DNA of 64,000 nt from a virus, in the IMG/VR virus record IMGVR_UViG_3300050500_000054, positions 9,788 through 73,787 of that record, one strand, 5' to 3'. Positions 760 through 51,571 of this stretch are shown piece by piece (the first letter of the stretch is position 1; every line of letters starts with the position of its first letter). Below the pieces are notes generated by a model. It searched no databases and was not told where the DNA came from. It saw nothing but the letters and a program-made list of their open reading frames with translations. Made by a program: the position numbers and the translations under genes.

Positions 760-822
760 TCAGCCTCCTAGCTAGTTGTTTTCCGGGATGTGCTACGATA
801 CTACCACAATTTGGCCGAATTG

Positions 823-23278: not shown

Positions 23279-25573
23279 TTACTTAGGTGCTCGTTCCCCA
23301 GCGGGGTTCGACTTCTCGATTGTTGGGCTTCCAGAGTTGCTGTTTGAGCGGTCCATACTCTGACCACCACCAGCTGCGCCTTGGCCTCTTACGCCTGGGC
23401 CTGGGGGCGCGGGCGGATTAGGTTGACCGGGCGTTGGAACTCCCATCAGCATTGGCATCATTGCCATGTTTAGTTCTTCGAGGTGAAGTTGGATAACCTG
23501 CTCGACCTCGGGGAACTGTTGCATAGCGTCTCTCATGGTGTCGCCGTTGAGCCACTTGATACGTTCGCCCCAGTGGATCTGAGGATTATACCAAGGCTTG
23601 ACGTTGAGAGGTGGGGGTCCTTCAGGGCTTGCCATCCAACGTTCGAAGGCGTCCTGCATTTGCAGAGCGGCCTGGACATGAACGTCTAGGGATGGAACCA
23701 AGTCGGACAAGCCTAGCTGTGATAGGATTGCGTATTTCTGTTCAGGATCCTCAGGTGTTAGAAGACGGAGCTGGTTGGCGTGCTCAATAGCGGCTCGCTT
23801 ACCTAGACCTGTCTTCGGCATGTCAGTTCCATCCTCGATGTGGATGTTGACGTTGCCTGTTAGAGATGCCTTTTGGAATGTCTCAAACGTGTAGCCGTGG
23901 TTTGGGCTAAGTACTGAGATTACTCGTTCTTGTGGTCCGAACGCTCGCTCTAGTTCGAGAGCTACGTTGAACCAGGTGCGATACATCTCGCCTCTTGCGT
24001 GGAAGGCAGATGTGAATCGAGCCTGTGAACGCTCAACTAGGAGTTGCATAGTTGAGAAGGCGCTGACACCTTGTGGGCGTTGGCCCTTGAGGATGTCGAA
24101 TGTTCCTGATAGTTCTTCGAGGTCCTGCAAGTGCTGTGCGCGAAGCTGGAAGAGGGTTGTTGGAACCTGTTCTCCAGCGATACGCTCAGGCTTGGCAGAG
24201 CCACCAGCGGCAAGTGGATTCCACTTCATCACTAGGCCGGGATCGCCGGTAAAGTGATCTAGACCAGCACCTTCTGGAACTACCCAGACAGGGTTGGCCA
24301 TGCGCTGAACGATCATCTGGATTAGGGAGTCGAGCTGGTTTAGCTGATCCTGCTTCTGGATGAGTGGCGCTAGGGCGCTGCGACCGTATAGACGACCACC
24401 GATTTGCTCGAAGGCTGCGTGTGAGAACGGGAAGAGAGGCATTCCTTCCTTATCCTTGAAGGGGATAGGACCGGGGATTGCTTCTTCTTCAGTTCGTAGG
24501 AGAATTTGATTCTTCTCCCCAATCACTCGCATTACGAGTCCTTCTGGGAACTCGTCAGTTGGCTTCATCCATAGCTCATACTCTGTTACACCTTCAACGG
24601 ACCCGGTTCCAGATGCCCCAAACATTGTGTTGTGGGCAGAGCCGGTTGCGAGGTCGTTGGTGTAGGCGAGAGATTTGAGAATCTGTAGAGAGCGATCTGC
24701 CGGAGTTGTTTCCCAGACGATTCGTGTTAGGAGATCAGGGTGGTTTGCCTCGTAGTAGTGCTTATCGCGCCAGCGGAGGCGGATAATGTATGGGACATCC
24801 TCGAAGTGAGTGATGTTGTGTGGGAAGGCGTATTCGAAGGGCGATAGGGCACGAGTGTGTCCCTTACCGTGGCTTCTCCATTCCCCAGCAGGCTTACCTG
24901 TTAGGGGGTCTGTTGCCTTACCGAATTGTGCTCCACCACATCCTGGGCACATGTTGTTGGCCTCAATGATTGTGGCAGGAGATGAAACCAGTCCGCACAT
25001 CTGGCAGGCTTCGTGGGCGATGAACACGCGGTTGTGGCGCTTGTCCATGTCCCAGGAAATCTGAAGACAGGCGTTTCCAGTTACGATGAACCAGAAGTCA
25101 GCATCACGCATGACTCCTCGCATACGGTGCTCATCGTGGATGAGTGGTGCGAGCTTGTCTACGATCTCTGCTGTTGCTACTGATTGAGGGTTGTGGCCGA
25201 TTGGACGGGCTACAACGCCTAGGTCTACGTCACCGAAGTTAGACTTCAGCGCCTGGACGATTTCAGCGATCTTATTTGTTGTTGGTCGAGGGACGTTCTT
25301 GTTTAGACGCTTATCGACCCATTCACGACGAGTGGGGTGGTAGTAAATCCACTGTCGGTTGATGGTATAGAAGATATCGCGCAGCCATTCACGCTCCCAG
25401 ATCCATCTATTGTCAAACGATTCCTTCTTTAGGCGTTCGAAGATGGTTAGAAGCTTACGATCATCGCTGTAAGGGTCTACTGCATCTGGAGCTTGCGGAA
25501 GGGCATCATCTGTCCCTGTTGCGGACAGACTGTTTGTCATCGTTTGTGATAGTGACTCAAAAGGCTGGGCCAT
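23279..25573 (-). CDS. portal protein candidate
   Basis: 764 aa; directly downstream of the large terminase; Gly/Pro-rich C-terminal tail. Confidence 0.5.
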   Translation of the reverse strand: MAQPFESLSQTMTNSLSATGTDDALPQAPDAVDPYSDDRKLLTIFERLKKESFDNRWIWEREWLRDIFYTINRQWIYYHPTRREWVDKRLNKNVPRPTTNKIAEIVQALKSNFGDVDLGVVARPIGHNPQSVATAEIVDKLAPLIHDEHRMRGVMRDADFWFIVTGNACLQISWDMDKRHNRVFIAHEACQMCGLVSSPATIIEANNMCPGCGGAQFGKATDPLTGKPAGEWRSHGKGHTRALSPFEYAFPHNITHFEDVPYIIRLRWRDKHYYEANHPDLLTRIVWETTPADRSLQILKSLAYTNDLATGSAHNTMFGASGTGSVEGVTEYELWMKPTDEFPEGLVMRVIGEKNQILLRTEEEAIPGPIPFKDKEGMPLFPFSHAAFEQIGGRLYGRSALAPLIQKQDQLNQLDSLIQMIVQRMANPVWVVPEGAGLDHFTGDPGLVMKWNPLAAGGSAKPERIAGEQVPTTLFQLRAQHLQDLEELSGTFDILKGQRPQGVSAFSTMQLLVERSQARFTSAFHARGEMYRTWFNVALELERAFGPQERVISVLSPNHGYTFETFQKASLTGNVNIHIEDGTDMPKTGLGKRAAIEHANQLRLLTPEDPEQKYAILSQLGLSDLVPSLDVHVQAALQMQDAFERWMASPEGPPPLNVKPWYNPQIHWGERIKWLNGDTMRDAMQQFPEVEQVIQLHLEELNMAMMPMLMGVPTPGQPNPPAPPGPGVRGQGAAGGGQSMDRSNSNSGSPTIEKSNPAGERAPK

Positions 25574-26270: not shown

Positions 26271-27770
26271 TCAGAGCCAAAAGTCATCCACATAGGTTGG
26301 AGGCTTCTCAGAGTCATCTTGCATCTTCTTTTCGATTGATCGGATGCGTTGGATGGTTGCCTGAGTCTCTCCATCGTAGGCAGAGATGTCTACTTGCTTC
26401 TCTTGAGCCTTTTTCGGCTCCGGAAGCTGCGGCCATGTCATCAAGGCATAGCGAATGCAGTCCGGAAGTTCATCGTCCTTCTTGTAGACGAGTGTTACAC
26501 CGCGATTTTGACCATCTTTGCGAGGATCCGCATAGCGGAGGGCCTGCATTTGCTTGATAGTCTTGGGAACTCGGCTCTCTACGAAGAACAATTGACCGTT
26601 GTGAAGCCAGGAACGGACTCTTTCGATGCCCGATTGCTGGTCATTCTCGGCTTTGTTGCACATAATGCCGTGTTGAGCAAGCTCAATCATCGGCTGGCGT
26701 TCGTTTTTGTTGATGGCCCAGCGTGTTTGGTGGCCACCTTGGAGACGAATGAGTCCATTCTTGTGTTGAATGAACGCTTTGTCTCGTTCTAGATACTCTC
26801 CAACGACCACGAGGCCCTTTTCGGTTGATACGAGCTTGACAGCACCGAAGGGGTGGTCAGCTCCAGTATCGAGTCCGATAGTTGCAGCACGGGTTGGGTC
26901 GATGTTTGGCCATTCAGGGATGAGCTTCTTAACCTGATCATCTGTTCGTAGGATGGCAGGGAGGATCAGATCACCGTAAACAGCTCCCGTGAAGGTAACG
27001 AAGTCGGCTTCGTATTCCTGACGATACATAACGTCAGTCATGGAAGCGCGTTCGCGGGCTAGGAACTCAACTCCATCCTTTGTTTGGAAGAGAGGAGAGT
27101 TGGCTGTCTTAGCTAGAGCAGCCCAGTAGCCTGGTTGTTCGTCTTCAGCGGGCTTGTAGAGTTCTTCGTAGACCCAATCGTAGCCTCGAGGGGATGTTGT
27201 GAAGAATGCAATCCCACGTTTGTCAGCTAGAGATGGGCGGATAACGTCCCAGTGAGCCTTGGTAAGCTCGCAGACCTCATCAATCCACAACCAGTCAAGT
27301 CCCTGTCCTCGTCCTTGGTCAGGATGCTCCAGGGTCTGGAAGTGGATAAGTGAGCCGTTCTTGAGACGTAGGTCGAGAAATTCGGATGACCAGTCTTCAA
27401 CCCAATCTTCTGGAATGAGTTTTTGGAAGGCTGGAATTACGTAGCGGTGGAGCTTAGGGTTGGTAGGAGCACATGCCCATCCTACGCTGTTTGGGATGGT
27501 AGCTTCTTCTACGCCTGCGATGCTGCCGAATCGGGACTTACCGAAACGACGGCCAGCGATAATTGTTAGTCGGTCGAAGGTGCGCTTGCCGTTGATGAGG
27601 CACTTTGGGCAGGATAGACCGGCTGGATTCTCGTAGACTGCTTCGTAACGGAAGGGTCTTCCCTTTTCGTCCTTGCAATATTCACATACACGCTCACGAC
27701 GGGCGGAAAGGAACTTCGCCTGCGTTGGCTGTTGGAAGATTGGGTCGTTGGGGAGGGAGATCCACTTCAT
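26271..27770 (-). CDS. terL: terminase large subunit
   Basis: Walker A 'AGRRFGKSRFG', Walker B 'LDWLWIDEV', C-terminal RNase H-like nuclease region with conserved Asp ('IGLDTGADHPFGAVKL'); 499 aa. Confidence 0.8.
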   Translation of the reverse strand: MKWISLPNDPIFQQPTQAKFLSARRERVCEYCKDEKGRPFRYEAVYENPAGLSCPKCLINGKRTFDRLTIIAGRRFGKSRFGSIAGVEEATIPNSVGWACAPTNPKLHRYVIPAFQKLIPEDWVEDWSSEFLDLRLKNGSLIHFQTLEHPDQGRGQGLDWLWIDEVCELTKAHWDVIRPSLADKRGIAFFTTSPRGYDWVYEELYKPAEDEQPGYWAALAKTANSPLFQTKDGVEFLARERASMTDVMYRQEYEADFVTFTGAVYGDLILPAILRTDDQVKKLIPEWPNIDPTRAATIGLDTGADHPFGAVKLVSTEKGLVVVGEYLERDKAFIQHKNGLIRLQGGHQTRWAINKNERQPMIELAQHGIMCNKAENDQQSGIERVRSWLHNGQLFFVESRVPKTIKQMQALRYADPRKDGQNRGVTLVYKKDDELPDCIRYALMTWPQLPEPKKAQEKQVDISAYDGETQATIQRIRSIEKKMQDDSEKPPTYVDDFWL

Positions 27771-27972: not shown

Positions 27973-28203
27973 TTAGACTTTATAGCAGACGATATTTGGT
28001 TGGGTTTGCCAGTGAGGCCAGTATCCGCCGTGCCCACAAGTTGGGCAGCGTCCGCAAGTTGGACAGGGAGAGGGATGGACAGGGTAATGCTGGATGAAGC
28101 CAGATGTTTGTGGAGTTGTTGTTACTGTGGATTCGTTTTTGTCTTTGAAGATGTTAGCGATATCCTTCAACATCTCGATCTCATTCTGATTCATCTTCAC
28201 CAC
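27973..28203 (-). CDS. small Cys-rich protein
   Basis: 76 aa with CPTCGRCPTCGHG motif. Confidence 0.25.
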   Translation of the reverse strand: MVKMNQNEIEMLKDIANIFKDKNESTVTTTPQTSGFIQHYPVHPSPCPTCGRCPTCGHGGYWPHWQTQPNIVCYKV

Positions 28204-28843
28204 CTGGAAGCCGAGCGCGGCCTACTACCATTCCTTCTACGACTTTGATGTTATCTGGCAGGGCGGGAGCTTCAATCTTAAGAGCCAACACCATTGGAGG
28301 GTTCTGGTTCTCAACCTTGACAGCTTGGTGGGCCTTGAATAGCCCAATACCCTGTGCTGCTCTGACCGTCATTTCACGGTCTTTCTTTTCGAGCCAGTAT
28401 TTCACGTTATCAACAATCAGTGGGGCGAGTTCGAACTCAAGCCTCTCAGCTGCGTTGTCGAATGTCAGCCACCCCTCACGGGTAGCCTTAGAAACCATTG
28501 AGTGTAGGGATGCTACTGTCATGCCCAGCTTTGGGGCAATCTCAGTGTTTGGCATTCCCTGTGCTCTGAATAGAATCCATTGAGCAACCTTATCACGGCG
28601 CTCCTTGGAAGGTGCTACTAGAACTGGATCGGCGTTTAGCGGACTTTCCGATGGCTTGCCGATGAGGACAGGCTGCCCAACGGGGACCAGCTCTTGCCCT
28701 CCAACTCCTGTTGTCCCATCGTCGGACGCTTCCTGCCGCTTGCGTGCAGCCTTGCAGGCAATACAGTTGCATCCGGGCTTGTGAGAGAGATACCCCGGTC
28801 TGCGTCGAGGTTTTGTTGGATTCTCAGGATTTGGAGTCTGCAC
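28181..28843 (-). CDS. HTH DNA-binding protein, putative terminase small subunit
   Basis: sigma-70 region-4-like HTH 'NTEIAPKLGMTVASLHSMVSKA'; N-terminal CNCIAC; first gene of the late arm upstream of TerL. Confidence 0.4.
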   Translation of the reverse strand: MQTPNPENPTKPRRRPGYLSHKPGCNCIACKAARKRQEASDDGTTGVGGQELVPVGQPVLIGKPSESPLNADPVLVAPSKERRDKVAQWILFRAQGMPNTEIAPKLGMTVASLHSMVSKATREGWLTFDNAAERLEFELAPLIVDNVKYWLEKKDREMTVRAAQGIGLFKAHQAVKVENQNPPMVLALKIEAPALPDNIKVVEGMVVGRARLPGGEDESE

Positions 28844-28963: not shown

Positions 28964-29037
28964 TGGAAGACGCTCTGGGAGTCGAACCCAGTTTGGTTGG
29001 GTTGCAGCCAACTGCCGAACCGTCTGGCTCAGCGCCT
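28964..29037 (-). tRNA. tRNA-Cys(GCA): tRNA-Cys (GCA), CCA encoded
   Basis: acceptor AGGCGCT/AGCGTCT, anticodon arm GTTGG-CTGCAAC-CCAAC, T-arm CTGGG-TTCGACT-CCCAG. Confidence 0.7.
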
Positions 29038-29116
29038 GTTGGGAGGGACGAAAGTATTATCGCTCGGTTCAGCGCGGACCTGCCGGAACCGATGGTTTTA
29101 AGTCACACGATAATTT

Positions 29117-29190
29117 TGGTGCGGGTGGAGGGAATCGCACCCCCATCATCCGGGTGGAAGCCGGAGATAATGCTCTTATACGACACCAGC
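29117..29190 (-). tRNA. tRNA-Gly(TCC): tRNA-Gly (TCC), CCA encoded
   Basis: anticodon arm TCCGG-CTTCCAC-CCGGA; T-arm GGGGG-TGCGATT-CCCTC; acceptor with one mismatch. Confidence 0.55.
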
Positions 29191-29195
29191 GTGAA

Positions 29196-29272
29196 TGGCG
29201 GGCCGGGGAGGAGTTGCACCCCCACCTAGCTGTTTTGGAGACAGTAATGCTGCTATTACACTACCAACCCGC
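29196..29272 (-). tRNA. tRNA-Trp(CCA): probable tRNA-Trp (CCA), non-canonical T-arm spacing
   Basis: acceptor GCGGGTT/GGCCCGC (two GU pairs), anticodon arm CTGT-CTCCAAA-ACAG; T-arm region GGGGG-TGCAACT-CCTCC leaves 2 extra nt, so the call is tentative. Confidence 0.35.
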
Positions 29273-29275
29273 GAG

Positions 29276-29349
29276 TGGCGGTCCCAAGGGGAATTGAACC
29301 CCTGCCGCTCGGTAGACAGCCGAGCATTCTTCCACTAAACCATGGAACC
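29276..29349 (-). tRNA. tRNA-Asp(GTC): tRNA-Asp (GTC), CCA encoded
   Basis: acceptor GGTTCCA/TGGGACC, anticodon arm CTCGG-CTGTCTA-CCGAG, T-arm GGGG-TTCAATT-CCCC. Confidence 0.65.
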
Positions 29350-29354
29350 GTATG

Positions 29355-29431
29355 TGGCGCTACGAGCAGGAGTTGAACCTGCAACCTTCTGCTTACAAGG
29401 CAGCTGCTCTGCCAGATTGAGCTACCATAGC
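29355..29431 (-). tRNA. tRNA-Thr(TGT): tRNA-Thr (TGT), CCA encoded
   Basis: D-arm TA-GCTC-AATCTGGCA-GAGC, anticodon loop CTTGTAA, T-arm GCAGG-TTCAACT-CCTGC. Confidence 0.65.
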
Positions 29432-29437
29432 GTAAAA

Positions 29438-29512
29438 TGGCGATGAGTGTTGGAATCGAACCAACGCCTGGAGGGTCAAAGCCTCCGGTCCTACCATTAA
29501 ACGAACTCACAC
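29438..29512 (-). tRNA. tRNA-Gln(TTG): tRNA-Gln (TTG), CCA encoded; 5' boundary approximate
   Basis: anticodon arm GGAGG-CTTTGAC-CCTCC, T-arm GTTGG-TTCGATT-CCAAC; acceptor pairing imperfect. Confidence 0.5.
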
Positions 29513-29519
29513 TTAATAT

Positions 29520-29594
29520 TGGCTGCCCTGCGAGGGTTCGGACCTCGATTACCTGTGTCAGAGACAGGCGTCCTTCCAGTTGAACGAAAGGGCA
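29520..29594 (-). tRNA. tRNA-Gln(CTG): tRNA-Gln (CTG), CCA encoded
   Basis: anticodon arm CCTGT-CTCTGAC-ACAGG, T-arm CGAGG-TCCGAAC-CCTCG, acceptor TGCCCTT/CAGGGCA. Confidence 0.6.
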
Positions 29595-29716
29595 TCATGA
29601 GACTAGAATTTCACTAGTCTGGCGTTGACCTACAGCGCCTAGGTTGTGGTGGGTTCCCACTCTCAGTGTCTCGGACTATCACTAAGTTAGTTTACGTCCT
29701 GTGGGAGTTCCCTATG

Positions 29717-29790
29717 TGGTGGGTTCTGAAGGACTCGAACCTTCATCCATCTGCTTAAAAGGCAGCGATTCTTCGTTGAACTAAGAACCC
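29717..29790 (-). tRNA. tRNA-Lys(TTT): tRNA-Lys (TTT), CCA encoded
   Basis: acceptor GGGTTCT/AGAACCC, anticodon loop CTTTTAA, T-arm GAAGG-TTCGAGT-CCTTC. Confidence 0.65.
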
Positions 29791-29793
29791 GAT

Positions 29794-29871
29794 TGGTAGC
29801 GCATGAGGGAATCGAACCCTCGGCCTCCTGATTGAAAGTCAGGCAAACGTGCCAACACAGTCTGATGCGCC
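29794..29871 (-). tRNA. tRNA-Glu(TTC): tRNA-Glu (TTC), CCA encoded; enlarged D region
   Basis: anticodon arm CCTGA-CTTTCAA-TCAGG, T-arm GAGGG-TTCGATT-CCCTC. Confidence 0.55.
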
Positions 29872-29874
29872 GTA

Positions 29875-29948
29875 TGGTCCAAGGTGATAGAGTCGAACTA
29901 CCACAGCACACTAATCAGGTGTGCGTCCTGCCATTAGACGAACCTTGG
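29875..29948 (-). tRNA. tRNA-Ile(GAT): tRNA-Ile (GAT), CCA encoded
   Basis: anticodon arm CACAC-CTGATTA-GTGTG, T-arm GGTAG-TTCGACT-CTATC, acceptor CCAAGGT/ACCTTGG. Confidence 0.65.
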
Positions 29949-29949
29949 A

Positions 29950-30038
29950 TGGTCGAGAGAGATGGAGTTGCGCCATCGGGGGTTTTAAGACCATCCGTTT
30001 TACAGACGGCTCTCGCCCTACTACGAGCCTACCTCTCG
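29950..30038 (-). tRNA. tRNA-Tyr(GTA): tRNA-Tyr (GTA), type II (long variable arm), CCA encoded
   Basis: acceptor CGAGAGG/TCTCTCG, anticodon loop CTGTAAA, variable arm GGTC-TTAAAA-CC, T-arm GATGG-CGCAACT-CCATC. Confidence 0.55.
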
Positions 30039-30043
30039 ATAAA

Positions 30044-30117
30044 TGGTCCTCTCGGTGGGAATCGAACCCACATTGCCATGCTTAAGAGGCATGTGTTCTG
30101 CGTTGAACTACGAGAGA
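30044..30117 (-). tRNA. tRNA-Lys(CTT): tRNA-Lys (CTT), CCA encoded
   Basis: anticodon arm CATGC-CTCTTAA-GCATG, T-arm GTGGG-TTCGATT-CCCAC. Confidence 0.65.
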
Positions 30118-30121
30118 ATAT

Positions 30122-30196
30122 TGGCTCCCCAGGCAGGGATCGAACCTGCGACTACTCGGTTAACAGCCGAGCGTTCTACCGCTGAACTACCGAGGA
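30122..30196 (-). tRNA. tRNA-Asn(GTT): tRNA-Asn (GTT), CCA encoded
   Basis: D-arm TA-GTTC-AGCGGTAGAAC, anticodon arm CTCGG-CTGTTAA-CCGAG, T-arm GCAGG-TTCGATC-CCTGC. Confidence 0.7.
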
Positions 30197-30204
30197 ACAA
30201 AAAG

Positions 30205-30281
30205 TGGTCTTGCTAGCAGGGGTCGAACCCGCATAGTCCTGTTTAGAAGACAGGTGCCTGATCCATTCGAGCCATAGCAAG
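30205..30281 (-). tRNA. tRNA-Arg(TCT): tRNA-Arg (TCT), CCA encoded
   Basis: anticodon arm CCTGT-CTTCTAA-ACAGG, T-arm GCGGG-TTCGACC-CCTGC, acceptor CTTGCTA/TAGCAAG. Confidence 0.65.
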
Positions 30282-30282
30282 A

Positions 30283-30358
30283 TGGTAGTCCCAAGAGGAG
30301 TCGAACCTCCAACCTGCCCGGTGTAAACGGGATGCTCTGCCAATTGAGCTACAGGACC
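30283..30358 (-). tRNA. tRNA-Val(TAC): tRNA-Val (TAC), CCA encoded
   Basis: D-arm TA-GCTC-AATTGGCAGAGC, anticodon loop TTTACAC, T-arm GGAGG-TTCGACT-CCTCT. Confidence 0.65.
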
Positions 30359-30362
30359 GTAT

Positions 30363-30437
30363 TGGGTGGACTGGCGGGATTCGAACCCGGCTACCGAGCG
30401 TTCACAGCGCCCTCAGCATCCCTTGCTGATCAGTCAA
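30363..30437 (-). tRNA. tRNA-His(GTG): tRNA-His (GTG), CCA encoded
   Basis: D-arm CAGC-AAGGGAT-GCTG, anticodon arm GGGCG-CTGTGAA-CGCTC, T-loop TTCGAAT. Confidence 0.6.
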
Positions 30438-30439
30438 CG

Positions 30440-30524
30440 TGGCGGAGAACCTGGGACTTGAACCCAGAAACCTTTCGGGTCACATGTTTAGCAAACATGC
30501 TCCTCGTCCTGCCGGACGCTCTCC
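30440..30524 (-). tRNA. tRNA-Ser(GCT): tRNA-Ser (GCT), type II, CCA encoded
   Basis: anticodon arm CATGT-TTGCTAA-ACATG, long variable arm TGACCCGAAAGGTTTC, T-arm CTGGG-TTCAAGT-CCCAG. Confidence 0.65.
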
Positions 30525-30525
30525 A

Positions 30526-30602
30526 TGGTCACGGTCGAAGGAGTCGAACCTTCAAGAAACCGCTTTTGAGGCGGTCGTGTCTGCCAGTTGCACCAGACCG
30601 TG
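30526..30602 (-). tRNA. tRNA-Leu(CAA)?: tRNA with anticodon CAA (Leu-type) but type-I architecture (5-nt variable loop), CCA encoded
   Basis: acceptor CACGGTC/GACCGTG, anticodon arm ACCGC-CTCAAAA-GCGGT, variable TTCTT, T-arm GAAGG-TTCGACT-CCTTC, discriminator A. Confidence 0.5.
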
Positions 30603-30662
30603 AGAAACTTGTAGCAGGCATCTCACCTACTTAGTCTACCGCGAGGGTTATTTATGGTCGAA

Positions 30663-30755
30663 ATGGCGGAAAGGGAGGGGATCGAACCCCCAAGGCTTTT
30701 TAAGCTCGCTTGTTTTCAAGACAAGTGCCGTCGCCAGCCGTCGGCTTGCCCATCC
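30663..30755 (-). tRNA. tRNA-Ser(TGA): tRNA-Ser (TGA), type II; 5' boundary approximate
   Basis: anticodon arm CTTGT-CTTGAAA-ACAAG, variable arm GCTT-AAA-AAGC, T-arm GGGGG-TTCGATC-CCCTC. Confidence 0.5.
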
Positions 30756-30756
30756 G

Positions 30757-30831
30757 TGGTCCAGAACTTAGGGATTGCACCTAACTCTCCTCCTTTTCAG
30801 GGAGGCGCTAATCTATCTCAGCTACTTCCGG
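30757..30831 (-). tRNA. tRNA-Phe(GAA): tRNA-Phe (GAA), CCA encoded
   Basis: anticodon arm CCTCC-CTGAAAA-GGAGG, T-arm TTAGG-TGCAATC-CCTAA. Confidence 0.6.
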
Positions 30832-30841
30832 ACGAAATGGA

Positions 30842-30859
30842 GGCCATCTTTCGATGGCC
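30842..30859 (-). terminator. terminator-like hairpin GGCCATC-TTTC-GATGGCC downstream of the intra-array small ORF
   Basis: perfect 7-bp stem 10 nt after the stop of 30869..31150. Confidence 0.4.
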
Positions 30860-30868
30860 CCCAAGGTG

Positions 30869-31150
30869 TTACTCTACAGGTGGTTCGACTGGATTCTGGA
30901 TTGCGTCCAGAGCGTCAGCCGCCGCACCTAGCTGCTGAATAACCGCAGCCTCTTCCTCACCCGAAAGACCACCGTTGGCTAGCTGATCCTTTAGGTCACG
31001 AACTAGCTGTGCAGTCTCTGCGATTTCAGAGAATACGCGATCAAGTGCAGCAGTAAACTCAGCCTGTGTTGCCATTATTCCTCCTAGCAGTCTGTTAGTG
31101 TTAAATTGTGCTACAGCTAGCACAATCAGCAGTAGCACGGCCATCATCAT
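30869..31150 (-). CDS. small membrane-anchored protein embedded in the tRNA array
   Basis: 93 aa; strong SD (GGAGGA, 6 nt) before ATG at 31150; N-terminal TM (MMMAVLLLIVLAVA) then acidic/Ala-rich helix; followed by hairpin. Confidence 0.5.
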   Translation of the reverse strand: MMMAVLLLIVLAVAQFNTNRLLGGIMATQAEFTAALDRVFSEIAETAQLVRDLKDQLANGGLSGEEEAAVIQQLGAAADALDAIQNPVEPPVE

Positions 31151-31212
31151 TCCGGTTCCTCCTAAGACAAACCGATTGACGGATTGGACGAATCACAGCA
31201 GGCGATTCAGAA

Positions 31213-31288
31213 TGGTGCTCCAACGAGGATTTGAACCCCGACTTAGGCGTTCGTAGCGCCTTGACCTGTCCAGTTAGTCGATCAGAGC
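31213..31288 (-). tRNA. tRNA-Arg(ACG): tRNA-Arg (ACG), CCA encoded
   Basis: anticodon arm AGGCG-CTACGAA-CGCCT, T-arm CGGGG-TTCAAAT-CCTCG. Confidence 0.6.
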
Positions 31289-31292
31289 AAAG

Positions 31293-31376
31293 TGGTGCCC
31301 CGCGTAGGAGTCGAACCTACACGTCTTGCGACACTGATTTCTAAGACCAGCGCGTCTGCCATTCCGCCAGCAGGGC
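31293..31376 (-). tRNA. tRNA-Leu(TAG): tRNA-Leu (TAG), type II, CCA encoded
   Basis: anticodon arm CTGGT-CTTAGAA-ATCAG, variable arm TGTCGCAAGACGT, T-arm GTAGG-TTCGACT-CCTAC. Confidence 0.6.
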
Positions 31377-31381
31377 ACAAA

Positions 31382-31456
31382 TGGTGGATTCCAGGGGAAT
31401 CGAACCCCTACTTTCTGCTTGCAAAACAGAAGTGCTCCCTTTATCACTAGGAACCC
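31382..31456 (-). tRNA. tRNA-Ala(TGC): tRNA-Ala (TGC), CCA encoded
   Basis: anticodon arm TCTGT-TTTGCAA-GCAGA, T-arm AGGGG-TTCGATT-CCCCT, acceptor GGGTTCC/GGAATCC. Confidence 0.6.
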
Positions 31457-31457
31457 A

Positions 31458-31532
31458 TGGTAGCGGATTAGGGAGTCGAACCCTACTGTCCCAGCTTATG
31501 AGACTGGCACCTACCCGGTCGGTCTATCCGCA
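31458..31532 (-). tRNA. tRNA-Met(CAT): tRNA-Met (CAT) (elongator, or Ile-lysidine type), CCA encoded
   Basis: anticodon arm CCAGT-CTCATAA-GCTGG; T-arm TAGGG-TTCGACT-CCCTA; 1-72 mismatch but no three consecutive G-C pairs in the anticodon stem, so not an initiator. Confidence 0.55.
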
Positions 31533-31538
31533 ACAAAG

Positions 31539-31617
31539 TGGTCGGGAATGCTGGATTTGAACCAGCGACCCCTCGTTTCCAAAACGAGTGGGAACGGCCA
31601 GACTTCCCCAATTCCCG
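31539..31617 (-). tRNA. tRNA-Pro(TGG): tRNA-Pro (TGG), CCA encoded
   Basis: acceptor CGGGAAT/ATTCCCG exact, anticodon arm CTCGT-TTTGGAA-ACGAG, T-arm GCTGG-TTCAAAT-CCAGC. Confidence 0.6.
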
Positions 31618-31898
31618 ATGGTGGCGCATGTTAACGTCGGTGCGCCAAGACGGATGCTACATCTCTACATCACGAGGCTCAATAAAGACCAGTTGTGTTG
31701 CGCTTCTGTGAGAGGCTCAACTGGTATGCTAAATGGAGCGAGTTATTAACCCAGACTCGCAAGCTGGGAAGATTTGGACCGATTACCCCGGTTTGCCTAT
31801 TGTATCGGTCGCCACTAATTTGCCCAGGTCAGGAGCGGAGGGAAAGGAGGACTCACTGAGCGGTGGCGGGGTTGGTGTTTATAAGTGCCAGTAATTCA

Positions 31899-31927
31899 AT
31901 CCTATCATAGACTTACGAGATTGTCAA
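31899..31927 (-). promoter_or_regulatory. sigma70-like promoter for the tRNA array (TTGACA-17nt-TAGGAT)
   Basis: minus-sense cTTGACAATctcgtaagtctatgaTAGGAT, about 270 nt upstream of the first tRNA (Pro). Confidence 0.55.
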
Positions 31928-31935
31928 GAACTATT

Positions 31936-32259
31936 TTACCCGAAGTGCCATTTTCCCTTAAACCAGACCCACAACTCGTGAACATAAGGGCGACTTTCGC
32001 CGTTGTGGTAGGGCTGGAACTTACCGAAAAGCTGCTTTACTCCGTTGGCGGTCTTGGTCCTCTTAATCTGGATGCACCGAACCTTGTCATCGCCTCGGAC
32101 GGCCATGAGATCCCATGGTCCGTGTGACCCAGCTGCTCTAATCACCGTGTAGCCTTCCTCCTCCAGGAGCTTCTTAGCTTTGTATTCGTAGGCGCGGCCG
32201 GTGATGTAGTTCTTGTTGGGCACGAAGAACAGTCTACCATAGATATCCCGGATTGTCAA
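31936..32259 (-). CDS. Holliday junction resolvase, archaeal Hjc-like
   Basis: 'GRAYEYKAKKLLEEEGYTVIRAAGSHGPWDLMAV' matches the Hjc catalytic core; listed start is a TTG inside the promoter -35 element, so the real start may be GTG at about 32223. Confidence 0.55.
   Translation of the reverse strand: MTIRDIYGRLFFVPNKNYITGRAYEYKAKKLLEEEGYTVIRAAGSHGPWDLMAVRGDDKVRCIQIKRTKTANGVKQLFGKFQPYHNGESRPYVHELWVWFKGKWHFG
32231..32259 (-). promoter_or_regulatory. sigma70-like promoter (TTGACA-17nt-TAGACT) for the Hjc gene
   Basis: same cTTGACAATc -35 box as the other copies; -10 TAGACT. Confidence 0.4.
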
Positions 32260-33223: not shown

Positions 33224-33709
33224 ATGCCAAAAGTAGTCGAAGTCATCATCGGTGGTCAGACCATGAAGGTTTCCGAAGAAGTCGCAGCACAGATTGCGGC
33301 GCTTCAGGCGGAGAACCAGAAGCTGGCCCAGGTGGCGGCGGCGCGGACCCGAAAGGCCGGATTCAGCATCGCAACCAACGCGAAAGGCGCGATGCAGATT
33401 TACGGTGCTTTCGATTCGTGGGGCCGATACCCGATCACGGTCCATCCGGATCAGTGGGCTGTCATCAAAGCTCACAGTGCCGAGATCGACGCCTACATCG
33501 CCGACAACAGGGCCGATCTGGTGAAGATGGAGTCGATCATCGCGGACTGGAAAGCCAAGAATCCGCAGCGCGCAAAGACTGGCGCGGCACGGGCGGCAGC
33601 CCCAGTCATGAGCATCGCAGAACGGGCGCGGCAGGCGGCGGCAGCCACCATGCGGGAACGTGATGAGGCCGAGATCACGGAAGAATTGCACCGACAGGCA
33701 GAACGGTAA
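33224..33709 (+). CDS. hypothetical Ala/Arg-rich coiled-coil protein in GC-rich island
   Basis: 161 aa; SD AAGGGGA; GC about 60 percent versus about 50 percent genome background; hairpin cgcaaggt...accttgcg after stop. Confidence 0.45.
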   Translation: MPKVVEVIIGGQTMKVSEEVAAQIAALQAENQKLAQVAAARTRKAGFSIATNAKGAMQIYGAFDSWGRYPITVHPDQWAVIKAHSAEIDAYIADNRADLVKMESIIADWKAKNPQRAKTGAARAAAPVMSIAERARQAAAATMRERDEAEITEELHRQAER

Positions 33710-34122
33710 GCACTCAATCGCAGAGTGACGCAAGGTTCAGAACATCGGACCTTGCGGGAATGCGGCAGGCCGGGTCACAAGCCCCGGCCACGGACACCAA
33801 ACCGATTTTGGGCGGTAACGACGGGTGCTAGGATGGTCCGGCAAGGCCCCTAGCAGGCCCCAGGAGCCACGAACGGGGCACCGGCAAGGGGCAACTACCG
33901 GCCCCCGCGAAAGGCGAGCGAAAGTGGGGCCGCAAACGGGCCGGACGGGTAGCAGGGTTTAGAGCATGTTGAGTGCTGAGTAACAGACTGGACGAATGAG
34001 TTAGCAGACTGGACACTAATGAGACTACAGAGACGGACTAGAGTGCTCTGTAAGCCCACAAGCCAGATAGTTAGCCTGCTAGTCTGTTGCTGAGCACTTG
34101 AGCAAACTGAGGAGGAGCACAA

Positions 34123-42426: not shown

Positions 42427-42499
42427 GGACAGGTAGCTCAGCGGTAGAGCGCCCAGCTTGAGAGCTGGGAGGTCGGTGGTCCGAATCCACCCTAGTCCT
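42427..42499 (+). tRNA. isolated plus-strand tRNA-like gene with an 8-nt anticodon loop (CUUGAGAG) and an A-A acceptor mismatch
   Basis: canonical D-arm TA-GCTC-AGCGGTA-GAGC, fully paired anticodon stem CCCAG/CTGGG enclosing 8 nt, T-arm GGTGG-TCCGAAT-CCACC, acceptor GGACAGG/CTAGTCC. Confidence 0.4.
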
Positions 42500-42619
42500 A
42501 GCAACAATGTTGGGGGGCAGCTTAACATTCCCAGCGAGGCACTGCACACCTCACAGTGTAGTAGCGGTCGTAGTGTGGAGTTGCCTCCCAACGCCATTTC
42601 CCAATTCGGAGAGGTTAGC

Positions 42620-43063: not shown

Positions 43064-43240
43064 ATGTTCGACAGAGACGAATTCGTGAAGGATGTCAACG
43101 ATTACCTCGAGGACAACTACGGTGAGGATCCCCTCGAGAAACACGAGGAAGAAGAAGCTGTAGAGTCAGCTCTAGAATCTGGCAACTACAGCATCAAGGA
43201 CATCGCTGAGCACATCCTCGACATCCGGTGGGAGATATGA
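43064..43240 (+). CDS. small acidic protein
   Basis: MFDRDEFVKDVNDYLEDNYGEDPLEKHEEEE...; internal Met of ORF 43010..43240. Confidence 0.3.
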   Translation: MFDRDEFVKDVNDYLEDNYGEDPLEKHEEEEAVESALESGNYSIKDIAEHILDIRWEI

Positions 43241-44220
43241 GAGACACAGTGCCTTCGATGCTCATTCTCAGTGGCCTCCCTGCTAGTGGCAAATCGACCT
43301 ATGCCAAGAAGTGGGTGGCTGAGGAGCCAGGCGGTCGCTATCGCCTGAACTATGACGACCTCCGTCGAGAGATGTATGGCCCAGAGTTTGTGTGGAACCG
43401 TCTCCAGGAGGATCTCATGAAGGTCGAAGCAGTCAAGAGGGTGACTGCTGCGATAAACCTCGGGCATGATGTTGTGATTGACAATTGCAACCTCACCCCG
43501 AGGGTTCGAGATCACTGGCGCAACATTGCCAACAACCTCAGCGTCACCAATGTTGAGGAGCATGAACTGGACGTGCCTGTCAGAGAGTGTGTTCAGCGTG
43601 ACGAGCTGAGAGGTGACAACCGTGTGGGGAGAGCTGTCATTGAGAGGATGGCACTGTTCAATGGGCACATTGACTGGAAGGATCCAGAACAGTATGCCCA
43701 GAACATCAAGTTCGTAGTCGTGGATATGGATGGCACCCTCGCCAGCTGTCAGCATCGGGTGAAGTATCTCGATAAGAACTGGTGCCTCGCATGTGACCGT
43801 GCGAGTGAGCCAAAGTTCATGTCAGACAAGTGTGCTTGGTGTGGGACTGGCAACCTCAGGGGGAAGAAAGACTACCGTGGGTTCTTCGCTGGAGTAGCAC
43901 AGGATCCTCCAATCCCGGAGATTGTGGATCTGGTCCGCCTCCTAAGCATGGAGCACTACATCCTCATCGTCAGCGGTCGTCCCACTAGCGATGCGGGTAT
44001 CAGCACTGAGGAGTGGCTGAAGACAAACAACATCTCTTACAAGCACCTCTTCATGCGTAACGGTGGGGATCATCGTGATGATTTCATCGTCAAGCAGGAG
44101 ATTTGCGACCTCCTCCCAAAGGATCGAATCGCGTTTGTCCTCGACGATAGGGATCAAGTTGTGAAGATGTGGAGGGACAATGGAATCAAGTGCTTGCAGG
44201 TGGCTGATGGAAACTTCTAA
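43228..44220 (+). CDS. pnk: polynucleotide 5'-kinase/3'-phosphatase (T4 Pnk-like bifunctional)
   Basis: N-terminal P-loop 'ILSGLPASGKST'; C-terminal HAD phosphatase motif I 'VVVDMDGTLA' and later 'LDDRD'. Confidence 0.7.
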   Translation: MGDMRDTVPSMLILSGLPASGKSTYAKKWVAEEPGGRYRLNYDDLRREMYGPEFVWNRLQEDLMKVEAVKRVTAAINLGHDVVIDNCNLTPRVRDHWRNIANNLSVTNVEEHELDVPVRECVQRDELRGDNRVGRAVIERMALFNGHIDWKDPEQYAQNIKFVVVDMDGTLASCQHRVKYLDKNWCLACDRASEPKFMSDKCAWCGTGNLRGKKDYRGFFAGVAQDPPIPEIVDLVRLLSMEHYILIVSGRPTSDAGISTEEWLKTNNISYKHLFMRNGGDHRDDFIVKQEICDLLPKDRIAFVLDDRDQVVKMWRDNGIKCLQVADGNF

Positions 44221-50003: not shown

Positions 50004-50525
50004 ATGGACCGCACAATCTCAATCATCGCTGGCCTCATCATCGCTGCCGCCGTAGTCAAGGGCTGCTCGTCGTCTACGCCTGCGGCTCCGACTCCTCCAT
50101 CCCAGCAAACCGCCGTGGATGCCGTCCCAGCACCTGAGCCGTTCTGCCTCTCCTTCGCTCCGAAGCTGGAGGAACCCAATGTCCAGCAGAGTCAGGCTGG
50201 CCCGAGAGTTGAACTGGAGTATTACCCGATCCTCAACACCGTCACTGGTAAGCTGATCTCCCGCTACGAGGTCCTCTTCCAGCGAATGAGTTTTCAGAAC
50301 GTCTGGGAAGATGTATCCATCCCATACGTCCAAGTTGAGGTCGATCCAAACAGAGACAAGCATTTCATCTCATGGCTGATTCGCAACGACCCTGACGGTG
50401 AGGGACGTGGTGGACCGAATGGCACCTACCGTGCTCTAGTTCGTGCTCACCTGGGTGAGGAATGCCACCCTGCTCGTCGTCTAACTGACTGGGCAACCTC
50501 AGAGACATTCTCGGTAAGCCAATGA
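50004..50525 (+). CDS. lipoprotein
   Basis: 'AAVVKGC' lipobox then Pro/Ala-rich linker. Confidence 0.35.
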   Translation: MDRTISIIAGLIIAAAVVKGCSSSTPAAPTPPSQQTAVDAVPAPEPFCLSFAPKLEEPNVQQSQAGPRVELEYYPILNTVTGKLISRYEVLFQRMSFQNVWEDVSIPYVQVEVDPNRDKHFISWLIRNDPDGEGRGGPNGTYRALVRAHLGEECHPARRLTDWATSETFSVSQ

Positions 50526-51571
50526 CAAGCCCATACGGAACACTACACCTCGTAGCCAAGAACGGAGAAGTCGTGACCAGTTGGCACAGCTATCCATCGA
50601 TCTACAACCTCGGCCACAAGGCTATTGACAAGCTCCTCGACCGCCCTGTTCTGGTAGAGGAGAAAGTCGATGGCAGCCAGTTCAGCTTCGGTTACTTCCC
50701 CGATGCAGAACCCGGCCTCGAACTGAAAGTGAAGTCAAAGGGAGCTATCATCCATGTGGACGCGCCTCCAGCAATGTTCCGCAAAGCTGTGGAAACGGTT
50801 AAGAGGATCGCCACAGAGGTGGGACTACGCAGCGGGTGGACATACCGTGGAGAGGTCCTGGCGAATCCACACCACAACACTCTCGCTTACGATCGTGCGC
50901 CCACTGGGAACATCATCATCTTCGACATCAACACTGGGGAAGAGGCATACCTGGATTACGATTCGAAGGCCGAGGAAGCAAAGCGCCTTGGTCTGGAAGT
51001 CGTCCCGCTCGTGTTTCGAGGTATCGTTCCAAGTATTGAAGCCTTTCGAGAACTGATCGACAAGCCCTCGATCCTTGGCGGTCAGAAGATGGAAGGTGTC
51101 GTGATCAAGCCAGAGGATTACCTCTACTTTGGTCTTGACAAGAAAGTCCTCATGGGCAAGTTCGTGAGTGAAAAGTTCCGTGAGGTCCACGGAGCAAGTT
51201 GGAGGGCAGCGAATCCGACCACTGGAGATATCATCCAGGTTCTCGGAGAACGCTACCGCACCCCTGCACGGTGGAACAAGGCTATTCAGCATCTCGACGA
51301 GGCTGGTAAGCTGGAATACTCCGTGCGGGACATTGGTAAGCTGATTGGTGAGATCGGTCCTGACATCGAGCGTGAGTGCAAGGATGAAATCATGGAAGAC
51401 CTCTATGCCTACGCTCGTAAGCACCTCATCCGTCACTGGACCAGAGGGTTCCCCGAGCACTACAAGGAACTCCTCCTGGAGCGTCAGTTCGAGAAGTATC
51501 AGGAACCCCCAGACATCGCACCTCCTGGGGTGGAAGTGTTTGAACAATTCCCGGAGGAACCCAAGTCATGA
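50522..51571 (+). CDS. RNA ligase (Rnl2/DRB0094-like nucleotidyltransferase)
   Basis: adenylylation motif I 'EEKVDGSQF' (KxDG), downstream 'WTYRGEVL', 'EGVVIK', 'KFVSEKFRE' fit ligase motifs III-V. Confidence 0.6.
   Translation: MTSPYGTLHLVAKNGEVVTSWHSYPSIYNLGHKAIDKLLDRPVLVEEKVDGSQFSFGYFPDAEPGLELKVKSKGAIIHVDAPPAMFRKAVETVKRIATEVGLRSGWTYRGEVLANPHHNTLAYDRAPTGNIIIFDINTGEEAYLDYDSKAEEAKRLGLEVVPLVFRGIVPSIEAFRELIDKPSILGGQKMEGVVIKPEDYLYFGLDKKVLMGKFVSEKFREVHGASWRAANPTTGDIIQVLGERYRTPARWNKAIQHLDEAGKLEYSVRDIGKLIGEIGPDIERECKDEIMEDLYAYARKHLIRHWTRGFPEHYKELLLERQFEKYQEPPDIAPPGVEVFEQFPEEPKS

Follow-up and report, generated by a model that had tools for sequence, protein, structure and literature searches.

A 25-gene phage tRNA array complete for all amino acids in the leader of a terminase operon

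The window analysed here is a stretch of 64,000 nucleotides of viral DNA (positions 9,788 to 73,787 of IMG/VR record IMGVR_UViG_3300050500_000054; coordinates below count from its first letter). It contains a large array of tRNA genes, all on the minus strand, at 28964-31617. ARAGORN identified 23 of them at default settings. A relaxed threshold added Tyr-GTA (29950-30038) and Phe-GAA (30757-30831), for a total of 25. The genes carry 25 different anticodons and cover 20 of the 20 amino acids. In a local scan with the Rfam tRNA model (RF00005, curated gathering score 29 bits), 21 of the 25 scored above the gathering score, at 35.8-65.7 bits. The remaining four, His, Tyr, Ser-GCU and Ser-UGA, are supported by ARAGORN and by cloverleaf-like minimum-energy folds. 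The genes are listed below in the order of transcription, each with an encoded 3' CCA.

31539..31617, minus strand: tRNA-Pro (UGG); ARAGORN, Rfam 55.7 bits
31458..31532, minus strand: tRNA-Met (CAU); ARAGORN, Rfam 35.8 bits
31382..31456, minus strand: tRNA-Ala (UGC); ARAGORN, Rfam 53.2 bits
31293..31376, minus strand: tRNA-Leu (UAG), long variable arm; ARAGORN, Rfam 51.8 bits
31213..31288, minus strand: tRNA-Arg (ACG); ARAGORN, Rfam 48.6 bits
30757..30831, minus strand: tRNA-Phe (GAA), non-canonical T-loop UGCAAUC; ARAGORN relaxed, Rfam 40.2 bits
30664..30755, minus strand: tRNA-Ser (UGA); ARAGORN default
30526..30602, minus strand: CAA-anticodon tRNA, reads the Leu codon UUG; ARAGORN, Rfam 49.1 bits
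30440..30524, minus strand: tRNA-Ser (GCU); ARAGORN, cloverleaf minimum-energy fold, z = -3.5
30363..30438, minus strand: tRNA-His (GUG); ARAGORN and fold, no Rfam match
30283..30358, minus strand: tRNA-Val (UAC); ARAGORN, Rfam 58.5 bits
30205..30281, minus strand: tRNA-Arg (UCU); ARAGORN, Rfam 44.8 bits
30122..30196, minus strand: tRNA-Asn (GUU); ARAGORN, Rfam 65.7 bits
30044..30117, minus strand: tRNA-Lys (CUU); ARAGORN, Rfam 59.0 bits
29950..30038, minus strand: tRNA-Tyr (GUA); ARAGORN relaxed only, cloverleaf minimum-energy fold, z = -2.4
29875..29948, minus strand: tRNA-Ile (GAU); ARAGORN, Rfam 48.6 bits
29794..29871, minus strand: tRNA-Glu (UUC); ARAGORN, Rfam 37.8 bits
29717..29790, minus strand: tRNA-Lys (UUU); ARAGORN, Rfam 60.9 bits
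29595..29716, minus strand: 122-nt spacer inside the array; fold z = -1.7
29520..29594, minus strand: tRNA-Gln (CUG); ARAGORN, Rfam 42.3 bits
29438..29511, minus strand: tRNA-Gln (UUG); ARAGORN, Rfam 48.5 bits
29355..29431, minus strand: tRNA-Thr (UGU); ARAGORN, Rfam 62.7 bits
29276..29349, minus strand: tRNA-Asp (GUC); ARAGORN, Rfam 59.7 bits
29196..29270, minus strand: tRNA-Trp (CCA); ARAGORN, Rfam 46.0 bits
29117..29190, minus strand: tRNA-Gly (UCC); ARAGORN, Rfam 44.9 bits
28964..29037, minus strand: tRNA-Cys (GCA), the final array gene; ARAGORN, Rfam 42.9 bits

These calls bear out the initial annotation, which had read at least 24 minus-strand tRNAs from the letters alone. It slightly understated the array. 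Its isotype list was correct and slightly conservative, as Trp-CCA and the CAA-anticodon tRNA are both present and bring the set to all 20 amino acids. The CCA end that it assigned to nearly all genes is found in 25 of 25. By the tRNA finders most of the genes are not pseudogenes, and the locus is a genuine phage tRNA array, complete for amino acids.

The 25 genes are packed into 2,654 bp, or 9.4 per kb, with intergenic spacers of 1-8 nt and four larger gaps of 61, 79, 122 and 381 nt. In the ARAGORN cloverleafs every gene has a 7-nt anticodon loop, U33, a purine at position 37, an acceptor stem and a discriminator base. Several genes have individual features. The Met tRNA has a U1.U72 mismatch and is without the three anticodon-stem G-C pairs that mark bacterial initiators. 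In tRNA-His an encoded G-1 pairs with C73, the bacterial pair, and the D-arm and T-stem are degenerate. In tRNA-Tyr the variable arm is long and the T-loop, CGCAACU, is non-canonical. For tRNA-Ser (GCU) no Rfam match was found at E<=1, and for tRNA-Ser (UGA) Rfam reports only the clan member tRNA-Sec, at 36.4 bits and under the gathering score of that model. The CAA-anticodon tRNA is 77 nt long, with a 4-nt variable loop and no long arm, which is unusual for a bacterial-type tRNA-Leu. It keeps the Leu-like 3-bp D-stem, large D-loop and A73, and its D-arm closely resembles that of the neighboring Leu-UAG. From its sequence it looks like a tRNA-Leu that is missing its long arm. The 122-nt spacer at 29595-29716 carries a second copy of the final 10 nt of tRNA-Lys (UUU), GAACCCACCA, as well as a hairpin with a perfect 7-bp stem (AGACUAG...CUAGUCU). 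Rfam searches of this and the other spacers gave no match. The 122-nt spacer could represent a tRNA in decay or a small stable RNA like those of the T4 tRNA region.

The 5.2 kb around the array are 100% identical across five assemblies (ENA, JGI, Logan), one of which is a 76,821-bp contig, and the exact TerL protein of the window is present on those five assemblies. An assembly chimera was rejected on the basis of this identity. No further tRNAs were found in the parts of the 76.8-kb genome that lie outside the window, so the whole complement consists of the 25-gene array and one atypical tRNA-like gene at 42427-42500, described below.

The array lies head to tail in the 5' untranslated part of an operon that encodes ORF93 (an open reading frame of 93 amino acids), a TerS-like protein, TerL and the portal. 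The elements of the locus are as follows.

31936-32223, minus strand: Hjc-like resolvase gene, upstream of the array
31899..31927, minus strand: promoter TTGACA-17-TAGGAT, sigma-70-like, with a TG extended -10
31769..31877, minus strand: candidate pseudoknotted leader RNA; covariance model R1, 68.6 bits
31681..31725, minus strand: hairpin ACCAGUUG...CAACUGGU followed by UCUUUAUU, between the leader motif and tRNA-Pro; from sequence and fold
30869..31150, minus strand: ORF93, with an AGGAGG Shine-Dalgarno sequence
30838..30863, minus strand: 11-bp hairpin 3' of ORF93; -21.6 kcal/mol, z = -4.08
28181..28843, minus strand: 220-residue helix-turn-helix protein, probably the small terminase subunit (TerS-like); its homologs lie directly downstream of the leader in relatives
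26271-27770, minus strand: TerL
23279-25573, minus strand: P22-like portal gene

The gene for the 220-residue protein is the first conserved protein gene 3' of the array. It is followed by TerL, portal, head, tail and lysis genes. The plus-strand genes, from 33.2 kb on, function in replication and nucleotide metabolism or are auxiliary. The phage has no close cultured relative; the TerL proteins of T5-like phages share about 23% identity with its own.

Relatives were collected by TerL scans of IMG/VR and of JGI/ENA metagenome contigs, which gave about 100 loci with TerL 55-68% identical to that of the window, mostly from groundwater, soil and sediment. The gene order Hjc-like, TerS-like, TerL, small gene, portal is kept among them, and the promoter and leader are also in place. 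The slot occupied by the array was compared in 40 distinct relatives with at least 2 kb of sequence upstream of TerL. It holds no tRNA in 33 of the 40, one in six and four in one. Among all of the roughly 100 loci (best TerL identity 68%), none has more than four tRNAs. The distance between the Hjc-like and TerS-like genes is about 190-330 nt in two relatives (L001 and L003) and 3,092 nt in the window. The tRNAs of relatives (at L162:7181-7623, L015:7050-7124, L021:8778-8852 and L013:940-1015) always sit 40-110 nt downstream of the leader motif. At least nine of ten examined end in an encoded CCA; the His call in L162 ends in CCC. Judged from these loci, the slot behaves as a recurrent landing site for tRNA genes throughout the family.

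The tRNAs of relatives were considered as orthologs of the array tRNAs and rejected, as their identities of about 60-65% are background for tRNAs. Origin of the array by recent internal duplication was also rejected, since the most similar pair of array genes is only 70% identical. No homologous array is present in 50,697 phage records, where blastn of the 3.5-kb region returned single-tRNA matches covering at most 6% of the query. The presence of zero to four tRNAs in the slot of relatives, together with the lack of orthology, indicates that the array is specific to this lineage. No close TerL relative was found in GTDB genomes, which therefore give no clue to the host.

The anticodon set is minimal. 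All seven non-Arg four-codon boxes are served by an anticodon with U34, and all pyrimidine-ending two-codon boxes by one with G34. The rest of the set comprises ACG (Arg CGN), UCU (AGR), U34 and C34 anticodons for both Gln and Lys, UUC (Glu), CAA (UUG), CAU and CCA. On the assumption that U34 reads all four codons of a box, the array can read 58 of the 61 codons, and the unreadable ones are CGG, ATA and TTA. Readable codons account for 99.7% of codon occurrences in late genes, defined as those on the minus strand, and 98.8% in early genes, defined as those on the plus strand.

Codon usage in the late genes follows the tRNA set. In four-codon boxes the A-ending share is 0.33 in late versus 0.20 in early genes (p = 3.2e-9), and the G-ending share is 0.10 versus 0.25 (p = 7.7e-11). 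The fraction of codons that are Watson-Crick cognates of an array tRNA is 0.53 versus 0.46 (p = 7.5e-8). The late genes were also compared with their orthologs, TerL and the genes downstream of it, in 36 relatives. ATA, TTA and CGG together make up 0.10% of late-gene codons versus 1.1-2.9% in every one of the 36. In this comparison the cognate fraction of the phage, 0.55-0.57, is the highest, with the relatives at 0.37-0.52. When the 61 codons were ranked by their synonymous fraction relative to the median of the relatives, the most depleted were CGG, ATA and TTA, exactly the three that the array is unable to read. The most enriched, CTA, GTA, ACA, CGT and TCA, are cognates of Leu-UAG, Val-UAC, Thr-UGU, Arg-ACG and Ser-UGA. 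CGG and ATA persist in the early genes of the phage, at 0.13 of Arg and 0.06 of Ile codons, respectively. These comparisons provide strong sequence-level evidence that the codon usage of the late genes and the phage tRNA set are co-adapted. They lend direct computational support to codon-usage compensation for late genes, a role that had been proposed for the array, and the effect is seen against the early genes and the orthologs of the 36 relatives. They also speak against the single CAU tRNA being a lysidine-modified tRNA-Ile2.

The promoter and the protein gene within the array have a different history from the tRNAs. The -10 element ends 281 nt before tRNA-Pro. The underlying motif, TTGACA-N13-16-TGnTAGnnT, occurs five times in the window versus 0.03 expected by chance. 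The copies, of the form TTGACAAT...TG(G/A)TAGnnT, are located as follows.

798-826, minus strand: promoter motif
31899-31927, minus strand: promoter motif, upstream of the array
32231-32259, minus strand: promoter motif
61717-61746, minus strand: promoter motif
62273-62301, plus strand: promoter motif

The four copies other than that at the array lie in front of the Hjc-like gene, an RNase H-like gene and two divergently oriented replication or recombination genes. In the copy at 32231-32259, the -35 hexamer, at 32259, shares bases with the TTG that had been called mechanically as the start of the Hjc-like open reading frame. The true start of this gene is probably the GTG at 32223, about 8 nt past the -10 element, and its mRNA would then be leaderless or nearly so. 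In relatives, with or without tRNAs, the motif likewise occupies these two sites, one before the Hjc-like gene and one just after it; it is at the same place in L001, L003, L015, L021, L148, L162 and L166. Its presence in relatives that have no tRNAs indicates that the site at 31899-31927 is the ancestral promoter of the ORF93/TerS-like/TerL operon and was not brought in by the array.

ORF93 has a short hydrophobic N-terminus, an acidic helical C-terminus and two starts preceded by AGGAGG, at 31150 and about 31075. Only two homologs (P0002 and P0003, 70-72% identical) were found among 5.8 billion proteins. Searches of Pfam and PHROG gave no match, and no relatives were found in IMG/VR. Both homologs come from relatives without tRNAs at the locus, where they lie between that same promoter and the TerS-like gene. 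This indicates that ORF93 is a resident gene and that the tRNAs were inserted on either side of it, five upstream and 20 downstream. The hairpin at 30838-30863 has a poor U-tract, AUUUCGU, and tRNA-Phe begins 7 nt downstream of it.

The initial annotation needs revision in this part of the locus. It had correctly located the TTGACA-17-TAGGAT site, which it took for the array's own promoter; the site is a family-wide operon promoter. The stretch of about 270 nt that it left between this site and the first tRNA is not empty and carries a conserved leader RNA that appears to form a pseudoknot. The embedded 93-residue gene with its strong Shine-Dalgarno sequence is present as described, and is a resident of the locus, found at the same place in tRNA-less relatives, instead of cargo of the array. 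The label 'membrane-anchored' for its product gains some support from a hydrophobic in-frame stretch upstream of a conserved internal Met in all three homologs. The hairpin described as the terminator of this gene is strong but lacks a proper U-tract, and our scan did not call it terminator-like.

The leader came to light when the sequence from the promoter to the first tRNA was aligned with its counterpart in relatives, which showed conserved blocks that contain compensating changes. From 5' to 3' it consists of Box1 (CCCCG), hairpin S0, the linker GGCAAAUU and hairpin S1, with a G-box in the S1 loop. Box1 is CCCCG in the window and CCGCC in most relatives, and the G-box is correspondingly CGGGG in the window and GGCGG in most relatives. 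The loop of S0 is a C/U-rich CCCUCC(UC) box that resembles an anti-Shine-Dalgarno sequence (CCUCC). The linker is conserved as G(G/A)CAAAUU, in which CAAAUU is invariant. S1 has the stem GACCGAU/AUCGGUC and a large loop, which begins with ACAAUAG and ends in the G-box that is predicted to pair with Box1. A U-rich tract comes after S1 in roughly half of the relatives.

Several lines of evidence support these helices. The long-range helix between Box1 and the G-box was predicted unaided by RNAalifold from a plain MAFFT alignment. For each helix, duplexes formed between strands of the same sequence are more stable than those between swapped strands: -12.8 versus -7.3 kcal/mol for S1 (0 of 5000 permutations as good), -8.1 versus -6.7 for S0 (39 of 5000) and -11.5 versus -10.6 for Box1 and the G-box (0 of 5000). 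On the alignment obtained from the covariance-model search described below, the covariation score is 0.374 versus 0.124 for shuffled alignments (0 of 500 as high) and 0.045-0.128 for slid partner registers. All three helices contain compensatory changes and are conserved in at least 25 relatives. Pairing in the pseudoknot helix reaches 95%, and the helix occurs in five compensating versions, CCGCC/GGCGG, CCCCG/CGGGG, CCGCU/AGCGG, GCGCC/GGCGC and UCGCC/GGCGA. A covariance model built from 12 sequences gave 31 matches at E <= 0.01, all upstream of TerL and on the coding strand (e.g. L006:6083-6197, L020:774-887 and L162:7018-7131), and at least 17 of the 31 were outside the seed alignment.

The window has a single copy of the motif. 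No Rfam 15 family matches over it (cmscan, E<=10, 31612-31935). A degenerate pattern scan of IMG/VR returned 25 matches, of which seven are real, including one new locus (L199), and the rest are due to chance; it found no copy outside the phage family. On this comparative evidence the leader represents a previously undescribed, new candidate family of structured RNA with a predicted pseudoknot. Its placement right after a strong promoter, its restriction to this long operon and the U-tract after S1 suggest control of elongation. The leader probably acts in cis on transcription into the long operon, by antitermination or attenuation. Such control would explain how untranslated genes could accumulate behind it. 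The hairpin at 31681-31725, between the leader and tRNA-Pro, has a sub-threshold match to the Rfam abiF motif (20.6 bits versus a gathering score of 37) and may be a weak terminator or attenuator.

Several plus-strand genes are relevant to the function of the array.

42427..42500, plus strand: tRNA-like gene outside the array; Rfam tRNA model 51.6 bits, ARAGORN, no encoded CCA
43228..44220, plus strand: Pnkp, P-loop kinase and HAD phosphatase domains; Pfam HAD_PNKP 5.6e-33 and AAA_33, PHROG 1.7e-68
45030-47305, plus strand: Nudix-domain protein, then NAMPT (NAPRTase and NAMPT_N domains)
50522..51571, plus strand: RNA ligase of the PF09414 family; Pfam 3.4e-15, PHROG 548 RNA ligase 9.5e-22

Pnkp and the RNA ligase had been named as co-encoded with the array, and both are present at these positions. 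Pnkp matches the T4 Pnk structure 1LTQ at E = 4.7e-24 and has the two domains of a bifunctional 5'-kinase/3'-phosphatase. The ligase has no match in the PDB. In a scan of the whole Pfam library PF09414 is the only family that it matches at E <= 0.01, which does not establish membership of the Rnl1 family. T4 Rnl1 belongs to a different Pfam family of its own, and PF09414 represents the Rnl2-type fold. The Nudix and NAMPT proteins resemble the KVP40-type NAD+ salvage pair, which is now linked to counter-defence. A 72-residue product at about 58954-59172 (plus strand) has a precomputed Pfam match to Acb5. Together the Nudix/NAMPT pair, the Acb5 match, Pnkp and the ligase suggest that the phage is rich in counter-defence genes. 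Pnkp may have been acquired together with the array: the Pnkp relatives that were retrieved are all distant (at most 35% identity), and none is from the long contigs of the family, a suggestive pattern that falls short of proof.

The tRNA-like gene at 42427-42500 is intergenic, upstream of an open reading frame of 98 amino acids and about 730 nt upstream of Pnkp. According to ARAGORN the arm has an 8-nt loop, CU-UGAG-AG, with a four-base 'anticodon' UGAG. RNAfold instead closes the arm to a perfect 7-bp stem, CCCAGCU/AGCUGGG, with a UGAG tetraloop. The body of the tRNA is good, and the arm lacks the canonical anticodon loop of 7 nt with U33 and a purine at 37. The flanking GCUA/UAGC could lengthen the acceptor stem. 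The pattern of the anticodon arm was found nowhere else in IMG/VR or in 185,579 GTDB species genomes, and a literature search on such tRNA-like genes returned nothing specific for phages. The gene could encode a quadruplet decoder or a non-decoding tRNA mimic.

Other features of the genome were noted. A match to the type-P5 twister ribozyme at 33719-33786 (plus strand; 54.8 bits, gathering score 37.6) lies directly after the first plus-strand open reading frame (33224-33709). On L171 and L169, which cover genome outside the window, DNA polymerase A is apparently split, and its pieces are separated by genes for a UDG-domain protein and for endonuclease VII. The same contigs encode ThyX, dCMP deaminase, MazG and a protein with a dGTP-diphosphohydrolase-like N-terminal domain, a set that may hint at modified nucleotides in the DNA.

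Taken together, the array is likely a functional tRNA operon, and the late genes for packaging, head and tail would be translated largely with the phage's own tRNAs. The comparison with relatives shows that the promoter and the leader RNA predate the tRNAs. The array and the late mRNA would be transcribed as one precursor. Host RNase P would cut each 5' end, and 3' exonucleases would trim the 1-8-nt spacers back to the encoded CCA, in which case a CCA-adding enzyme would not be needed. Charging would be carried out by host synthetases, and host modification enzymes such as TadA, for the ACG anticodon, would be required. The tRNAs would be used mainly for late translation. The benefit would be that the phage no longer depends on the tRNAs of the host, whose pool may be a poor match or may run low late in infection through host anticodon nucleases or phage-induced shut-off. 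Pnkp and the RNA ligase may provide a second, repair-based line of protection.

A number of observations weigh against this interpretation. His, Tyr, Ser-GCU and Ser-UGA fall below the gathering score of every Rfam tRNA-clan model, and the T-loops of Gly, Trp, Tyr, Phe and Gln-CUG are non-canonical. The array has just one Met tRNA. Full autonomy would need U34 to read C-ending codons, which are still common (CTC is 0.26 of Leu codons). The strong hairpin after ORF93 might halt transcription before the distal 20 tRNAs, and the function given to the leader RNA is pure inference. Three relatives without an array (L031, L024 and L013) likewise have late genes that avoid codons ending in G. To that extent the bias is not unique to the phage, and either predates the array or has another cause. 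In addition, the late and early genes are on opposite strands, and a strand-specific mutational bias could contribute to the contrast in A and G at third positions. Such a bias would leave unexplained why ATA, TTA and CGG specifically are lost compared to the orthologous genes of relatives.

The array could instead serve purely in counter-defence, replacing tRNAs cut by anticodon nucleases such as PrrC, RloC, VapC, colicin-like enzymes or the effectors of retrons or PARIS, with the codon match being secondary. Pnkp and the RNA ligase supply both activities of the T4 tRNA-repair pathway, and the NAMPT and Nudix proteins and the Acb5-family match look like further counter-defence genes. Known anticodon nucleases, however, hit few isoacceptors, whereas the array covers 20 amino acids, once per codon box. 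That only the unreadable codons are almost gone, and that cognate codons are enriched, suggests that the tRNAs have long been in routine use for late translation. In Lys-UUU and Tyr-GUA the anticodon loops (CUUUUAA and CUGUAAA) seem ordinary against those of E. coli and show no obvious evasive change. Such a role has been proposed or shown for phage tRNAs (PMC10264068; PMC11555353), and we consider it an unlikely sole explanation here.

A bolder scenario combines several of these elements. The late genes would have been rewritten in a 58-codon code readable by the 25-tRNA set, as host tRNAs would be unavailable late in infection. The leader would render the polymerase resistant to termination and so create a safe harbour for untranslated inserts. 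The tRNA mimic with a sealed arm near Pnkp would act as a decoy for defence enzymes that target tRNAs. We regard this scenario as doubtful.

The array could also be a recently acquired, largely neutral or selfish mobile element, comparable to the L-arrays of bacteria or to the T4 tRNA region with its homing endonuclease. It would then have inserted where an intergenic slot tolerated it and would matter little to the phage life cycle. It occurs in one phage only among about 40 relatives, the slot is variable, and the few tRNAs of relatives are non-orthologous. The L-arrays of bacteria are known to spread horizontally and can be silent (PMC8421152). Against this reading, no homing endonuclease, transposase or integrase adjoins the array, the 50,697 phage records hold no homologous array, and there are no recent internal duplicates (maximum 70% identity). 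All 25 genes keep their cloverleaf and CCA, and the late-gene codon usage appears reshaped around the set, which would need time and selection. This makes a neutral passenger very improbable. The chance that the array is an artefact, whether of a chimera in metagenome assembly or of tRNA pseudogenes in a row, is negligible: four members do score under every Rfam tRNA-clan gathering score, two need the relaxed ARAGORN threshold and all copies are 100% identical, leaving no population variation to test, but different assemblers (ENA, JGI, Logan) recovered the same 5.2-kb region, in a 76.8-kb contig with syntenic flanks, 21 of 25 genes pass the curated Rfam threshold, and one gene per codon box with a uniform CCA is unlike decay.

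The functional tRNA operon proposed here bears on a question that has been debated for more than 50 years, namely whether phage tRNAs compensate for codon usage or replace depleted host tRNAs. The phage family constitutes a natural experiment, with about 40 relatives that share the gene order and have zero to four tRNAs in one slot, and one member that has a complete set. The loss from late genes of precisely the unreadable codons is unusually clean evidence, at the level of sequence, for tuning to the phage's own tRNA supply. The locus also adds a candidate structured RNA family with compensatory covariation and an odd tRNA-like gene near Pnkp.

Clusters of tRNA genes are known in viruses; those surveyed comprise 15-37 tRNAs, at densities of 2-10 per kb, and the genomes that carry them measure 72-617 kb (Morgado & Vicente 2019, PMC6409571). 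Eight of these clusters contain all 20 isotypes, and examples include Cellulophaga phages of about 72 kb and Cluster M mycobacteriophages (PMC6409571). The array described here has at least 15 genes (25) at no less than 2 per kb (9.4) in a virus genome. It is similar to those clusters in being dense, on a single strand and in the genome of a tailed phage (TerL, P22-like portal and tail genes), one at the small end of the size range. It differs in having no homology in sequence or gene order in the 50,697 records and in being unique in its own family. Its location is also different, in the leader of a terminase operon and behind a conserved RNA with predicted structure.

T4 has 8 tRNAs and 2 small stable RNAs, and its Pnkp and Rnl1 repair tRNA-Lys cleaved by PrrC. 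Tight spacing, mostly U34 anticodons for A-ending codons, spacers the size of small RNAs, and a T4-like Pnkp with an RNA ligase are common to both regions. Co-transcription is a further likeness, which for the array is only inferred. Unlike the T4 region, the array has three times the tRNAs, a complete set, no segB-like homing endonuclease, a ligase of the PF09414 family and a CCA encoded in all genes. The T4 repair pathway is summarised in PMC10264068. That phage tRNAs replace host tRNAs depleted in defence is an established hypothesis, which experiments support (PMC10264068; PMC11555353).

The T5 region, with about two dozen tRNAs and small open reading frames, is also a large array with a small protein gene between blocks, in a phage whose TerL is about 23% identical, and it has been read in the same way, as independence from the host tRNA pool. 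The genome here is about 77 kb versus about 121 kb in T5, and the small open reading frame is an older resident of the locus.

The L-arrays of bacteria (PMC8421152) are similar in being non-periodic, in comprising up to dozens of different tRNAs that form a supernumerary set, and in occurring in one lineage but not in its close relatives. The distribution is equally patchy, with zero to four tRNAs in the same slot of 40 relatives. Signs of horizontal transfer are lacking here, with no homologous array in the phage records and no endonuclease gene in or adjoining the array. This array is in a virus, has no homing endonuclease, and the codon usage of the recipient appears to be adapted to it instead of the array being silent.

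Leader elements that control late or long operons include the PR'-qut-6S RNA-tR' region of lambda, the put RNA of HK022 and the boxA antitermination element of rrn operons. The candidate leader described here is likewise a structured RNA of about 110 nt just after a strong sigma-70 promoter, and it heads an operon of at least 30 kb that opens with untranslated, highly structured RNA. As in those systems, it is conserved and lies directly 3' of the promoter of a long operon; its effect on termination is putative. It differs in being a predicted pseudoknot with a C/U-rich loop, not two simple stem-loops. Phage tRNA clusters as such are thus known already. What goes beyond the ordinary here is the uniqueness of the array in a well-sampled family, the loss of exactly the unreadable codons, the leader RNA motif and the atypical tRNA-like gene.

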